DNA from: a virus | Lineage: Duplodnaviria; Heunggongvirae; Uroviricota; Caudoviricetes | Length of the DNA: 12,547 nt | Virus record (IMG/VR): IMGVR_UViG_2675903434_000005 | Strand: one strand, 5' to 3' | Part shown: positions 1,641-12,547 of the stretch, one piece after another | How positions within the stretch are numbered: the stretch's first letter is position 1 | Layout: each line of letters starts with the position of its first letter | Notes under the pieces: model-generated | What the model saw: the letters and a program-made list of their open reading frames with translations, nothing else | Told to the model about the DNA's origin: nothing | Databases searched by the model: none | Position numbers and translations under genes: made by a program

Positions 1641-4112
1641 TTAAGAATCAGCCTGACTCGGGATCAGTTTTTGCCAGATAACTGAAACGTATTTTGCCTG
1701 GTAACGGGCGTCATCAAGTGCATTATGGCGCTCACCTTCGAATGGAATAGCCGTTCTGGCATCGAAGTCTATGGCTTTCCCCAGCTCAACGATTGTGCGT
1801 ACATCGCGATCGTTGTAGTAACGCCACGGGCAGGGGATCCCCTGCCGTTCGTATGAACGGCGCAAAATCGTGTTGTCGAAGTTGGCTCCATTTCCCCAGA
1901 CCTGAACAAAAAATTCACCGGAGTTTTCGTCGATAAATTCCCACAATTGTAACAGTGCATCATCTAACGGGATTTCATCGGTCATAATGGCAGATTGCGC
2001 TTCGCGTGATTGCTTAAGCCACCATTTAATGGTGTCCCGATCAATGACTCCGCCAGCAGTTTCCAGATCGATAGTCTTACTAAATTCCGGTCCCATATCT
2101 CCGGTTTGCGGATCGAAAAATATTGCACCTATTGAGATGATCGGGGCATCAGGATTTTTTCCCATGGTTTCAAGGTCGATCATTAGATGGTCACACGTCC
2201 TGCTGGTGGATGTGATTTCTTGATGACCGTTCACCTTAATTGAGTGATCTGCCGTCTCGCCAGTTTCATTATCGCTATCGTGATGCTGATTGCCGCCAGT
2301 GTTCTCCTTGTGTGGATGTTCAGCGCCTTCCATTTCCTCCGGATCATCTTCCTGAACTTCAATCTGATACTCTTCATCGAATGTTTCCTGGTATGTTGCG
2401 TCGCCCATTACCGCGCCACAATCAGGGCAGTTGCCGCCGCCGGTCTGACCGCAGGCGGTGCAGACTTTTTCCACTTCCTGTTGCGCCACTGATTCAGGCT
2501 GTTTCGTTTCTGGCTCGTTTTGTAACGCATTTGGGCTGTTTTGTTCCGCTTTTTGGTAGTTCCGTTCCGATTCATGCTGGTTCTGGTTCACAGAATCGCG
2601 GGTCTGGATCCCCTTAACCCATTTCGGATCATTCGGGTCACTAATCCCTTCAACAAATTCACCACGTGATGCAGCAAGCAACTTATCGGCGTCAGGCTGG
2701 ATGATATTGGCTGCCTGCATAATTTTGTTTACTTCGTCAGCGGTAACTTTTATCGGCTCTGGTTGTTCTGAATCTTCAGCGGTATCTACATTTTGCGGTA
2801 AGCCCGTGTATGTGCCATTTTTTCGGGCAAAATATTCTTCTTTTGTGATTTCAGTGGCGCCAGCAGCCAGTGCCTTATCCAGACCAGAAAGTTTGTTTGC
2901 GCGACCGTATTTTTCTCCGTCCTTATCTGCGAAGAGGAAATAGAACGGCCCCTCACGCTCTACAGATGGTTCAGCTTCCGGCGCGGTTTCATTTTTTGGG
3001 ATATCAGATACCTCAGTTTCCACTGCATCAGTTTGTGTTTCTGATGACTGGAGAACATCAACAGTGCCCAGGTCTGTTTCTTCATTCTCAAACACGCCCT
3101 TTGTCGTCAGGTATTCGCAGATATATTTGTTCAGTGCTACGGGATCTTTGTGAATGTCGATCGGACGCTCACGGACAAGGCCAAAAATAGTTTGGCGGTC
3201 GTAGCGAAGGGCATCAGGCTGTTTGCGCATTGATGCCGAGATACGCTTCCAGTCTTCGCGGTCGTTGTCGATAACTTCATTTTTTGCCCAGCGATGGATG
3301 CTGCCGTCAATGTTTCCGGCATCCACATCACCAGGCCAGAGAGCGTAGGCCAGTTCGTCATCCAGTGTTTTCCATGTCTGCTTGTATTCGCGATGAATGG
3401 CAGCAATGACCGGGCTGATTTTTCCTGTTGAATTTTCAGTGTACTGTTGATTGGCTCTGGCGCGGGCGAGATCAACAACAGACGTGTATTTTCCGGTTTC
3501 CTTGCGTTCACCTTCGCGACGTTTTTTCCAGATGCGCATCTCTGCCTGAATTTCGGGCCATTTAGCACCAGGAATACATTTATGCTTAACCCACCCAATG
3601 GCGTGCAACTTAAGCTCCGGATACATGGCGTTAACTTCTGGCATTTTCATCAACGCTTCAACGATATGTCCGTCGAATGTTGCCATGTCTTCCTGCAACA
3701 ATTCCTGTGCGCTAATAACCATATCAACGGTGATGTTTTCACATGTGTCGAACTTAACCATGACAGCGTTCTGTACTTCAGGGGCCAGCTTGTCAAAAGT
3801 GACGTTCATCGGATCGGATTCAGTCTCAACCGGGACAAAAGAAGCAGACTCCTCATCCCAGCGGTTTTCCTGCATATATTCAGCATCCCATGAATCGAGG
3901 GCAGGGCGGGGTATGCCAGGTTTATCCTCGCAGACAATAAATTTATAAGCGCAGTCCTGAGCAGCCGGATAATGTTCCAGGAATTGCCAGTGAAATTTTG
4001 CTCGAGCACGGCGTTCGTCGCCAGCTTCAATGGCTGTGGCTACAGCCACAGCGCCTTCTTCCCTTGTTGCCAGTTCGTCAGGAATAGCGGCGCAAATAAA
4101 GACTTTACTCAT
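1641..4112 (-). CDS. Exonuclease, intact YdfE-like: RecE-like N-terminal region, central CxxC-x7-CxxC zinc ribbon, C-terminal DEDDh 3'-5' exonuclease domain
   Basis: ORF track 1641..4148. Start set at ATG 4112 (MSKVFICAA), which has a GAGG Shine-Dalgarno about 10 nt upstream. C-terminal ~190 aa show DEDDh motifs: MIDLETMG (Exo I), WGNGANFD (Exo II), HNALDDARY (Exo III). The middle holds CTACGQTGGGNCPDCG and Asp/Glu-rich linkers. Occupies the position of ydfE in the Qin gene order. Confidence 0.8.
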   Translation of the reverse strand: MSKVFICAAIPDELATREEGAVAVATAIEAGDERRARAKFHWQFLEHYPAAQDCAYKFIVCEDKPGIPRPALDSWDAEYMQENRWDEESASFVPVETESDPMNVTFDKLAPEVQNAVMVKFDTCENITVDMVISAQELLQEDMATFDGHIVEALMKMPEVNAMYPELKLHAIGWVKHKCIPGAKWPEIQAEMRIWKKRREGERKETGKYTSVVDLARARANQQYTENSTGKISPVIAAIHREYKQTWKTLDDELAYALWPGDVDAGNIDGSIHRWAKNEVIDNDREDWKRISASMRKQPDALRYDRQTIFGLVRERPIDIHKDPVALNKYICEYLTTKGVFENEETDLGTVDVLQSSETQTDAVETEVSDIPKNETAPEAEPSVEREGPFYFLFADKDGEKYGRANKLSGLDKALAAGATEITKEEYFARKNGTYTGLPQNVDTAEDSEQPEPIKVTADEVNKIMQAANIIQPDADKLLAASRGEFVEGISDPNDPKWVKGIQTRDSVNQNQHESERNYQKAEQNSPNALQNEPETKQPESVAQQEVEKVCTACGQTGGGNCPDCGAVMGDATYQETFDEEYQIEVQEDDPEEMEGAEHPHKENTGGNQHHDSDNETGETADHSIKVNGHQEITSTSRTCDHLMIDLETMGKNPDAPIISIGAIFFDPQTGDMGPEFSKTIDLETAGGVIDRDTIKWWLKQSREAQSAIMTDEIPLDDALLQLWEFIDENSGEFFVQVWGNGANFDNTILRRSYERQGIPCPWRYYNDRDVRTIVELGKAIDFDARTAIPFEGERHNALDDARYQAKYVSVIWQKLIPSQADS

Positions 4113-4204
4113 TTGTTTTAACCTCATGACAGATTTAAGGATGAACAAATCCCTGCCATTGCTGGCATATAAGAATGAAACCGGATATTTATTACGGAAC
4201 TGTT

Positions 4205-5974: not shown

Positions 5975-6613
5975 TTAAATATCTTGTTGAATTTTAAAGC
6001 ATACGCCCAATATGCAAGATAGATCATCCAGCATAATTGAAGGGTAGCGAGGATTCGTGGGGACTAAAAGAATATCCGGCCCTTCTATCTCCAGTTTACG
6101 AATGACAGGTGTTGTGGTCCCTTTGGGTAAGGCAAGGACAATATTTCCTGGTTGTACGGTTCGATCGGGATCAACAAAAACTGTTGAACCATTTGGGATG
6201 GAAACTCCCCCACCAGATGTTGACATACTGTCACTCTCTAGAACAACTGCAAAGGTATTGACCGGGATTTCTCCGACAAGCTGCACACAAGAGGTTATTG
6301 AGGAATTTTTCATATAATCACTCCAGCTTGCTGCCTGCTGAAGTGATAGTAGCGGAACCGTTTTTATCGGCGGTAAAGATAGATCAAGCGAATCACCTGT
6401 ATTTAACTCTCCTCCATTAAGAAGCCAATTTTCGTTTACTTTCAATATTTTTGCCAGTGAACTTATGTAACGCGAGGACGGCGCTCCTCCACCGTTCATC
6501 CATTGACTTACGGAGCCTTTTGATGCGCCAGTGCCATTGACAAGGTCTTTGCCTTTCAGGTTTAGCGCATGCATACGTTGGGTTATGCGTTCAGATATAG
6601 TTTGCTTGCTCAT
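5975..6613 (-). CDS. CI-like prophage repressor (N-terminal HTH, C-terminal S24 LexA-type autopeptidase domain)
   Basis: ORF track 5975..6613 (212 aa). C-terminal motifs align with lambda CI: LESDSM vs VEGNSM (Ser nucleophile), VFVDPDRTVQPGNIVLA vs ILVDPEQAVEPGDFCIA, IRKL vs FKKL (Lys), LVPTNPRYPSI vs LQPLNPQYPMI. N-terminus has an HTH (GASKGSVSQWMNG). Divergent from the Cro-like gene. Confidence 0.9.
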   Translation of the reverse strand: MSKQTISERITQRMHALNLKGKDLVNGTGASKGSVSQWMNGGGAPSSRYISSLAKILKVNENWLLNGGELNTGDSLDLSLPPIKTVPLLSLQQAASWSDYMKNSSITSCVQLVGEIPVNTFAVVLESDSMSTSGGGVSIPNGSTVFVDPDRTVQPGNIVLALPKGTTTPVIRKLEIEGPDILLVPTNPRYPSIMLDDLSCILGVCFKIQQDI

Positions 6614-10898: not shown

Positions 10899-10967
10899 GA
10901 GACCTGGCGGGGGAGAAATCCCTCGCCACCTCTGATGTGTCAGGCATCCTCAACGCACCCGCACGTA

Positions 10968-10993
10968 ACCCGCTTCGGCGGGTTTTGTTTTTT
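10968..10993 (+). terminator. Intrinsic terminator at the end of the hok transcript
   Basis: ACCCGC-TTCG-GCGGGT hairpin followed by TTTTGTTTTTT. Confidence 0.6.
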
Positions 10994-11065
10994 CCTGGCA
11001 TTCTGGTTTACAATTCGCACGCCAGCCTGAACAACTGGCACCTGCTGCGCCAGCAGAGACAACCG

Positions 11066-11344
11066 ATGGCGCACGATACCAAATTACACAATTCTAATGA
11101 TTCTGCCGTCTTTGCCAGTAGGTGCGGACGGCGTTTTCACGCATTCAAATCAGACTGGTTCCAGCATCCTCCATGCACTGAAGAGCAGGCGGAATGGATA
11201 ATTCAGTGTTACCGCAGGCGCGGATACGAGGTTAAGAAAGCTCTTAGCCTCGACTACCGTCACTGGATAATCTCAGTCAGACTCCCTTACTCCGAACGCC
11301 CACCGCGTTCATCCCGCACATACCAGCAACGGATCTGGAGGTAA
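11066..11344 (+). CDS. Small Cys/Arg-rich protein, Rem-like by position (92 aa)
   Basis: Part of ORF 10937..11344. The first ATG lying downstream of the hok terminator is 11066; it has no strong ribosome-binding site. The stop lies 1 nt before the next gene. Sits between hok and the YdfU-like gene. Confidence 0.45.
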   Translation: MAHDTKLHNSNDSAVFASRCGRRFHAFKSDWFQHPPCTEEQAEWIIQCYRRRGYEVKKALSLDYRHWIISVRLPYSERPPRSSRTYQQRIWR

Positions 11345-11345
11345 C

Positions 11346-12395
11346 GTGCGGGTATTACTTCGACCTGTTCTGGTACCGGAACTCGGGGTGGTGATCGTTA
11401 AGCCGGGCCGTGAATCCATGCCGGTATTCCACAATACCCGGGTACTGGTGGAGCCGGAACCGAAAAGCATGCGTAATCTGCCGTCCGGGGTCGTTCCTGC
11501 CGTTCGCCAGCCGCTGGTGGAAGACAAAACATTGCTGCCGTTTTTCAGTAACGCACGGGTGATTCGTGCTGCTGGTGGTGCTGGTGCATTGTCTGACTGG
11601 CTGTTGCGCCATATTAAATCCTGCCAGTGGCCACACGGCGATTATCACCACAGTGAAACCGTCATTCACCGTTATGGTACCGGCGCAATGGTGTTGTGCT
11701 GGCACTGCGACAACCAGCTGCGTGACCAGACATCCGAATCACTCGAGCAACTTGCTCATCAAAACCTGTCAGCATGGATGATTGACGTCATCGGTCACGC
11801 AATAAGCGGTACGCAGGAGCGTGAATTATCTCTGGCTGAATTATCCTGGTGGGCGGTCCGAAATCAGGTGGCGGATGCGCTACCTGAAGCGGTATTACGT
11901 CGCTCGCTGGGATTACCAGCGGAAAAAATCCGCTCAATGTACCGCGAAAGCGACATCGTACCGGGAGAGCAGACCGCCACCAGCATATTGAAACAGCGCA
12001 CAAAAAATCTTGCACTGTTGCCTCACGCCCACCAGGAACAACACCCACTACAGGAAAGGACGGTGGTAAGCATCACCGTTGATCCTGAGTCTCCGGAATC
12101 TTTCATGAAGCTACCTAAACGTCGCCGCTGGGTTAAGGAGAAATACACTCGCTGGGTGAAGACACAGCCGTGTGCTTGCTGCGGTATGCCAGCCGACGAT
12201 CCGCATCATCTGATTGGTCACGGGCAGGGCGGAATGGGAACCAAAGCACATGATCTTTTTGTGTTGCCTTTATGCAGAAAGCATCACGACGAACTGCATA
12301 CGGATACCGTGGCATTTGAAGAGAAGTATGGCTCCCAACTGGAGCTGATTTTTCGATTTATCGATCACGCGCTGGCAATTGGTGTGCTGGCCTAA
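11346..12395 (+). CDS. YdfU-like (DUF968-type) protein, 349 aa, with C-terminal HNH-like zinc-finger motif
   Basis: ORF track 11346..12395. GTG start preceded by GGAGG at 6-nt spacing. C-terminus CACCGMPADDPHHLIGHG...LCRKHHDELH resembles an HNH nuclease fold. Length and position immediately upstream of Q match Qin ydfU. Confidence 0.8.
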   Translation: MRVLLRPVLVPELGVVIVKPGRESMPVFHNTRVLVEPEPKSMRNLPSGVVPAVRQPLVEDKTLLPFFSNARVIRAAGGAGALSDWLLRHIKSCQWPHGDYHHSETVIHRYGTGAMVLCWHCDNQLRDQTSESLEQLAHQNLSAWMIDVIGHAISGTQERELSLAELSWWAVRNQVADALPEAVLRRSLGLPAEKIRSMYRESDIVPGEQTATSILKQRTKNLALLPHAHQEQHPLQERTVVSITVDPESPESFMKLPKRRRWVKEKYTRWVKTQPCACCGMPADDPHHLIGHGQGGMGTKAHDLFVLPLCRKHHDELHTDTVAFEEKYGSQLELIFRFIDHALAIGVLA

Positions 12396-12412: not shown

Positions 12413-12459
12413 ATGCGTGATATTCAGATGGTTCTTGAGCGTTGGGGAGCGTGGGCGGC
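12413..12459 (+). CDS. N-terminal fragment of a Q-like late antiterminator, interrupted by an N gap
   Basis: ATG 12413 with GGAG 7 nt upstream. MRDIQMVLERWGAWAA matches my recollection of lambdoid Q-family N-termini. The reading frame after the gap cannot be established. Confidence 0.45.
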
Positions 12460-12469
12460 NNNNNNNNNN
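12460..12469. other. Run of 10 ambiguous bases (assembly gap or mask)
   Basis: Literal n x 10 in the sequence. Confidence 0.99.
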
Positions 12470-12547
12470 GCTTTGCCACAAGGTTTCTCCTCTTTTATCA
12501 ATTTGGGTTGTTATCAAATCGTTACGCGATGTTTGTGTTATCTTTAA

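Follow-up and report, generated by a model that had tools for sequence, protein, structure and literature searches.

A predicted zinc-stabilised His-Me finger (HNH) nuclease domain in YdfU, encoded directly before Q in a Qin/PPompW-type lambdoid prophage

The gene directly before the antiterminator gene Q in a 12,547-nucleotide (nt) stretch of DNA from a virus of the Caudoviricetes (IMG/VR record IMGVR_UViG_2675903434_000005; the whole stretch is called the window here) encodes YdfU, a protein of 349 amino acids (aa). By residue conservation, profile comparison, and structural modelling, the C-terminal ~95 residues of YdfU are a His-Me finger (HNH, beta-beta-alpha-metal) nuclease domain with a putative stabilising zinc. 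The interpretation that we prefer, with a probability of about 0.6, is that YdfU is a delayed-early lambdoid nuclease whose zinc-bearing His-Me finger C-terminus would nick recombination or replication intermediates in the role of an accessory nuclease. The gene and its parts are laid out as follows.

11337 to 11341, plus strand: Shine-Dalgarno sequence GGAGG, 4 nt before the GTG at 11346, read from the sequence
11346 to 12395, plus strand: ydfU coding sequence, 349 aa, GTG start and TAA stop, from the list of open reading frames (ORFs) and the sequence
11346 to 11819, plus strand: N-terminal domain, aa 1-158, conserved and confidently folded
11622 to 11714, plus strand: Cys/His motif of the N-terminal domain, aa 93-123, C93-Q ... 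H101 ... C118-W-H-C121-D122-N123
11820 to 12110, plus strand: middle helical region and linker, aa 159-255, corresponding to the first half of the DUF968 profile (positions 2-80)
12111 to 12392, plus strand: predicted C-terminal His-Me finger (HNH) domain, aa 256-349
12171 to 12299, plus strand: core motif of that domain, aa 276-318, from conservation counts and alignment to Gp16 of phage PhiNM1

The core of the C-terminal domain is made up of C276-A-C278-C279 (nt 12171-12182), D285-P-H287-H288-L, D303, and C310-R-K-H313-H314-D-E-L-H318 (ending at nt 12299), with the spacing HH-x14-D-x10-H-x3-H. Conservation was counted in 26 full-length homologs, 26-81% identical to the window protein, from a library clustered at 50% identity. 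C276 is present in 26/26, C279 in 21/26, C310 in 22/26, and a cysteine or histidine at position 313 in 21/26, while D303 is invariant (26/26) and H287, H288, H314, and H318 are each retained in 23/26. All catalytic residues are intact in the window protein and in 23 of the 26 homologs, and because the motif is kept across 26 sequences at such levels of identity, it is not a chance pattern. In a codon comparison with Escherichia coli K-12 and strain ET358, the ratio of non-synonymous to synonymous substitution rates (dN/dS) was 0.17 for the whole gene, 0.05-0.06 for the C-terminal domain, 0.06-0.16 for the N-terminal domain, and 0.37-0.47 for the middle region, leaving the HNH domain (0.05) as the most constrained part of YdfU and the middle region as the least constrained. 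By homology we infer that C276, C279, C310, and H313 are structural zinc ligands, that H288 is the general base, and that H287, D303, H314, and H318 position the catalytic divalent metal.

Family searches assign the protein to groups already classed as His-Me finger or HNH proteins. Full-length YdfU matches Pfam DUF968 (PF06147) with 257 bits against a cut-off of 27.8 (E-value 1.2e-76), with positions 1-171 of the 171-position profile aligning to aa 160-346, and it matches PHROG 96, 'HNH endonuclease', with an E-value of 4e-174; no NCBIfam model matched it. The isolated C-terminal 94 aa score 27.5 bits against Pfam HNHc_6 (PF16784; cut-off 26.6), a match in which only positions 123-184 of the 204-position profile are covered by YdfU. 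When a profile of the C-terminal domain was compared with that of Gp16 from the Staphylococcus aureus phage PhiNM1 using hhalign, the two aligned with a probability of 93% (E-value 3e-7, 34% identity over 67 columns), and profile-profile probabilities were 81% for Ref of phage P1 and 78% for YbcO of the DLP12 prophage. Sequence searches of the PDB gave no match for the single protein or for the full-length profile, and the C-terminal profile reached only YbcO (E-value 0.015).

Modelled with AlphaFold2 from the 26-sequence alignment, YdfU has a mean predicted local distance difference test (pLDDT) score of 84, with strands at residues 285-288 and 306-309 and a helix at 311-319 that together form a beta-beta-alpha unit. 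In the model, H288 is the last residue of the first strand, and it aligns with H157 of Gp16. The initial annotation had proposed, from the letters of the sequence, that this ORF is YdfU-like, lies directly upstream of Q, and carries an HNH-like zinc-finger nuclease core, and it had named structure prediction as a check, with a non-HNH fold as one refuting outcome. The ORF at 11346-12395 is 90% identical over 349 aa to K-12 YdfU (b1560) and belongs to DUF968; the quoted motif CACC...DPHHL...CRKHHDELH is present at aa 276-318; and the ydfU stop at 12393-12395 is followed by the Q ATG at 12413. The nuclease core is borne out by PHROG 96, by the HNHc_6 match of the C-terminal fragment, and by the profile matches to Gp16, Ref, and YbcO, and the predicted fold is the beta-beta-alpha unit rather than a non-HNH one.

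Several relatives have been studied. In a classification of His-Me finger proteins, Jablonska et al. (2017) placed DUF968, with YdfU named, and DUF1364/YbcO in group 7 and proposed a role in recombination (PMC5714182), and the zinc-finger HNH motif of DUF968 proteins had been described by Curtis et al. (2014) (PMC4118853). PhiNM1 Gp16 (Nucleic Acids Research, 2026) is an early protein with an HNHc_6 domain that binds double-stranded DNA and introduces nicks in vitro. It interacts with RecA, which stimulates it, and phage DNA replication is impaired when Gp16 is lost (PMC12817073). In the hhalign register, the zinc-finger residues C148, C181, and H184 of Gp16 correspond to C279, C310, and H313 of YdfU, and its nuclease-centre residues H157, H185, and H189 correspond to H288, H314, and H318; all six of the mapped Gp16 residues were mutated experimentally (PMC12817073). 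Mutants at the equivalents of C279, C310, and H313 lost the growth-inhibition phenotype, and DNA cleavage in vitro depended on C181 (C310 in YdfU) (PMC12817073). Gp16 itself passes the thresholds of both HNHc_6 and DUF968. Like ydfU, it is an early phage gene, located near genes for single-stranded DNA-binding protein and replication, and RusA is also present in PhiNM1; unlike YdfU, Gp16 has a single histidine where YdfU has the HH pair. The best structural match is P1 Ref (PDB 3PLW; RecA_dep_nuc), which cuts DNA inside RecA-made D-loops (PMC4330346). YbcO of DLP12 (PDB 3G27; YbcO/DUF1364) is a 96-aa stand-alone domain that does not have the N-terminal 250 aa of YdfU, carries 'AH' at the position of 'HH', and differs in its cysteine pattern.

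Taken alone, the N-terminal 158 aa of YdfU were predicted to fold with a pLDDT of 90, and none of the 32 aligned members matched a Pfam model in this domain. Its Cys/His motif is conserved among the 26 homologs, with C93 in 26/26, cysteine or histidine at position 101 in 25/26, C118 in 26/26, histidine or cysteine at position 121 in 26/26, and D122 in 24/26, and in the model it forms a beta-hairpin (strands 105-110 and 113-118) followed by a helix (119-125). At two of these positions cysteine and histidine replace each other, as zinc ligands typically do. As judged from alignment and model, the motif is a putative structural zinc site. The N-terminal domain showed no significant similarity to Gp16 or Ref. 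Beyond it, the linker at aa 225-242 has a pLDDT below 50 and is followed by the basic segment P257-K258-R-R-R-W, in which K258 is found in 26/26 and P257 in 25/26 homologs; the short basic segment preceding the HNH domain, aa 255-266, reads KLPKRRRWVKEK. No similarity of the middle region to lambda Orf/NinB or DLP12 YbcN was found, and the YdfU family profile aligned to lambda NinB and DLP12 YbcN with a probability of 0.1% in hhalign. An Orf/NinB-like N-terminal domain has been described in Gram-positive DUF968 proteins (PMC4118853), but these comparisons show that the Orf/NinB-like domain of the Gram-positive DUF968/HNHc_6 proteins is absent from YdfU.

As we envisage it, YdfU would be the product of the gene that closes the delayed-early operon, immediately before Q, and would act as a zinc-stabilised, divalent-metal-dependent nickase without strong sequence specificity, by analogy with Gp16 and Ref. 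Likely substrates, again by analogy, would be intermediates of recombination or replication, among them D-loops, branched DNA, and DNA at stalled forks, with RecA possibly helping. We infer that the structured N-terminal ~250 residues, including the separate Cys/His zinc-type module, would give specificity for a substrate or partner. YdfU would thereby aid the recombination-dependent replication and repair of phage DNA shortly before the late genes are switched on, and in most related phages it would act beside a dedicated junction resolvase (RusA, VRR-NUC, or PD-(D/E)XK).

The accessory part of this role is drawn from gene neighbourhoods. In phages SfV and mEp390, as in metagenomic relatives, YdfU-like genes are located after the replication genes and before Q, and they usually adjoin a gene of resolvase type.

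Phage SfV: RusA two genes before the YdfU-like gene
Phage mEp390: RusA directly before the YdfU-like gene
Loci L006 and L007: RusA directly 3′ of the YdfU-like gene, the RusA start overlapping its stop (L006:1936-2319)
Locus L008: VRR-NUC directly 3′ of the YdfU-like gene (L008:7029-7499)
Loci L009 and L010: RusA three genes 5′ of the YdfU-like gene
Loci L011 to L013: a PD-(D/E)XK DUF1064-like gene between the YdfU-like gene and Q (L011:4733-5095, L013:1112-1450)

The DUF1064-like PD-(D/E)XK proteins carry a PDFLV...EVKG motif, and the coordinates of resolvase-type neighbours include L017:2227-2616 and L018:3067-3456. The initial annotation had pointed out that lambdoid nin regions encode recombination nucleases at the equivalent position, and it had left open whether YdfU is a functional analogue of these or an accessory nuclease. 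NinG/Rap of lambda and YbcO-RusA of DLP12 do lie just 5′ of Q. The accessory role fits the resolvase-type neighbours better. Lambda Rap/NinG (PF05766) shares with YdfU its nin-region position 5′ of Q, yet YdfU has no Pfam NinG match, BLASTP gives an E-value above 1, hhalign gives 8% over 13 columns, and no relationship is detectable beyond a PCxxCG turn. It is distinctly unlikely that YdfU is instead the prophage's own Holliday-junction or branch resolvase, standing in functionally for lambda Rap/NinG or RusA where these lie on the map. That proposal draws on the slot before Q, which is NinG's in lambda and YbcO-RusA's in DLP12, on the counting of a group with lambda Rap/NinG among the His-Me finger families (PMC5714182), and on the window itself, where no other resolvase-type gene is found between the replication genes and Q. 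It is countered by the undetectable similarity to Rap and by the co-occurrence of RusA (SfV, mEp390, L006/L007, and L009/L010), VRR-NUC (L008), or the DUF1064-like nuclease (L011-L013) with YdfU-like genes, which makes redundancy unlikely. An accessory nuclease, and not a resolvase substitute, is therefore the favoured role.

The properties of Gp16 and Ref also raise a different use for the same chemistry, in which YdfU would be mainly a weapon or conflict factor that damages or condenses the DNA of the host or of competitor phages for host shutdown or exclusion, phage recombination being secondary. Gp16 inhibits host growth and replication (PMC12817073), P1 Ref is reported to raise the lethality of ciprofloxacin (PMC4713147), and the toxin gene hokD is nearby in the window, as relBE-hokD is in K-12. 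We consider this unlikely, as no PADLOC defence family matches YdfU at an E-value of 0.01 or below, the hokD and relBE neighbours do not recur around other homologs, and in many active temperate phages the gene keeps to one place in the early operon, which a variable cargo island would not do. A role in packaging, in which YdfU would aid cos cutting by terminase as HK97 gp74 does, is extremely improbable: terminase-assisting HNH proteins are a well-known phage class (PMC12817073), but ydfU lies in the early region with Q and the lysis cassette between it and the terminase genes, and the terminases that accompany it belong to the lambda Nu1/GpA type, with a large subunit that has a Pfam GpA_nuclease domain.

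A number of observations weigh against the accessory-nuclease interpretation. Full-length YdfU scores 23.9 bits with HNHc_6, under the cut-off of 26.6, and its scores with Pfam RecA_dep_nuc (PF16786), 15.4 bits for the full-length protein and 23.2 for the C-terminal fragment, are below the cut-off of 26.9; Foldseek gave no significant match of the full-length model to the PDB. The nuclease activity, the substrate, and any link to RecA are all drawn by analogy, and the analogues differ where a partner would be chosen: Gp16 has an Orf/NinB-like N-terminal domain, whereas the N-terminal 250 aa of YdfU are unlike Orf/YbcN, and P1 Ref has a 76-aa disordered basic N-terminus where YdfU has a folded region, so that partner choice may differ in both cases. 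PdcB of phage P1 adds a further objection. PdcB (NC_005856 88859-89902; L016:1405-2448) is a full-length YdfU homolog (26% identity, E-value 9e-37; DUF968 E-value 3.6e-50) that keeps the N-domain motif and the zinc cysteines of YdfU but has lost catalytic residues, with HH replaced by PY, H314 by Q, and H318 by E, and it probably lacks nuclease activity, although RefSeq labels it 'HNH endonuclease'. The same kind of catalytic-histidine loss is seen in the metagenomic homologs P0205, P0228, and P0249, and pdcB is non-essential in P1. Since these four proteins have lost the catalytic histidines and kept the rest of the protein, the YdfU family appears to have at least one branch that functions without catalysis.

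This branch is an argument for a non-catalytic YdfU, that is, a zinc-finger protein that binds DNA or acts as a scaffold, possibly tied to the late-gene switch, with its HNH residues a relic. PdcB and the three distant homologs keep the architecture and zinc cysteines after the loss of H287, H288, H314, and H318, and pdcB lies directly 5′ of lpa, the unrelated late activator of P1, as ydfU lies directly 5′ of Q. For YdfU itself, the proposal is very improbable, given the intact catalytic residues in the window protein and in 23/26 homologs and the strongest constraint (dN/dS 0.05) falling on the HNH domain; a separate C1-controlled promoter is present between pdcB and lpa, and the adjacency in P1 need not be functional. 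A more elaborate proposal would cover both halves of the protein. In it, the N-terminal Cys/His unit would descend from an ancient duplication of the C-terminal His-Me finger, would have lost catalysis, and would now direct YdfU to RecA filaments or branched DNA. YdfU as a whole would then act as a nickase guided by RecA, initiating recombination-dependent replication shortly before the late switch. Such a two-module nickase would explain why the family lies directly 5′ of two late regulators that are unrelated to each other, Q in lambdoid phages and Lpa in P1. An hhalign comparison of the N-terminal and C-terminal domains gave an E-value of 0.18 on A1 slices and 0.014, with a probability of 3%, for A2 against A3; the register of the alignment is sensible and the scores are not significant. 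We regard this proposal as speculative and quite unlikely.

Apart from its domain structure, ydfU has a well-supported start and a wide distribution. M1 is invariant across a 32-sequence N-terminal alignment, and the same start is annotated in K-12 and in ET358, the closest E. coli genome. The stop codon of the upstream ORF (TAA, 11342-11344) ends 1 nt before the ydfU GTG, and GGAGG overlaps the end of that ORF, an arrangement that suggests translational coupling of ydfU to the upstream 92-aa gene. Downstream, 17 nt separate the ydfU stop from the Q ATG. YdfU of K-12, from the Qin prophage, is 90% identical over all 349 aa, has the same GTG start, and occupies the same place directly before Q; the 35 substitutions between the two proteins, three of them in the HNH domain, are allelic differences only. 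A 1648-bp query containing ydfU was at least 80% covered by a near-identical region in 3482 of 5426 complete E. coli genomes, and active temperate phages of Escherichia, Shigella, Klebsiella, Salmonella, Yersinia, Morganella, and Vibrio carry homologs. In the database homologs P0144, P0190, P0191, P0247, P0125, and P0010, the N-terminal part of YdfU is fused to fragments of the tail-tip protein J, of tail fibres, or of portal proteins, or full-length YdfU is fused to Q. These fusions were rejected as true domain architectures and are read as chimeras produced by deletion or read-through in decaying prophages.

The window covers the left, early section of a Qin/PPompW-type lambdoid prophage. 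It opens with an integrase, an excisionase, and a gene for an 835-aa protein whose C-terminal domain is a DEDDh exonuclease, followed by a gene for a cI-like S24 repressor, a Cro/YdaS-like gene, and a YdaT gene, then by a replication gene, a DUF977 gene, and several small ORFs, and at the right end by hokD, a 92-aa hypothetical gene, ydfU, and the start of Q. The two genes flanking ydfU are as follows.

11066 to 11344, plus strand: Cys-rich 92-aa hypothetical gene with its TAA stop at 11342-11344, annotated in locus L001 at 6166-6444
12413 to 12547, plus strand: 5′ part of a Q-family antiterminator gene, ATG at 12413, extending past the end of the window

The Q-family identity rests on a homologous gene in L001 annotated 'antiterminator Q family protein', and a run of 10 N at 12461-12470 within Q is an assembly gap or a masked stretch. 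The upstream neighbour differs from that of K-12, where rem fills the slot of the 92-aa gene in Qin. The 92-aa protein matched no Pfam family and is unlike K-12 Rem, P1 PdcA, or the products of genes 5′ of other ydfU homologs, and a conserved small partner gene 5′ of ydfU was rejected, the upstream genes being mutually unrelated. A strong intrinsic-terminator-like hairpin at 10967-10994 (plus strand; AACCCGC-TTCG-GCGGGTT followed by a T-run) lies just 3′ of hokD and 5′ of both the 92-aa gene and ydfU. Given this hairpin, antitermination or a separate promoter is probably needed for transcription to reach ydfU and Q. Opposite-strand ORFs at 11355-11705 and 11788-12048 (both minus strand) are unsupported and overlap a gene under purifying selection. 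In the early-left region, the 835-aa ORF at 1641-4148 (minus strand) combines a long acidic N-terminal part that has no family match with a C-terminal Rv2179c-like DEDDh 3′-5′ exonuclease domain (E-value 1e-66), and it has a weak PADLOC DEDDh match.

The HNH domain of YdfU is already on record, through Pfam DUF968 as a His-Me finger family, through PHROG 96, and through GenBank, where, as in RefSeq, homologs in SfV, mEp390, HannyBb, and P1 are labelled 'HNH endonuclease', and it is not in itself new biology. The value of the present analysis is a sharper, testable hypothesis for a 'y' gene of E. coli K-12 that is still uncharacterised, as the zinc and catalytic residues of YdfU map onto residues mutated in Gp16, the first relative for which RecA-stimulated nicking and a need in phage replication were demonstrated, in 2026 (PMC12817073). 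If YdfU is likewise a RecA-dependent nickase, it could affect the SOS response, antibiotic synergy, and prophage induction in many lysogens of E. coli, Shigella, and Shiga toxin (Stx) phages.
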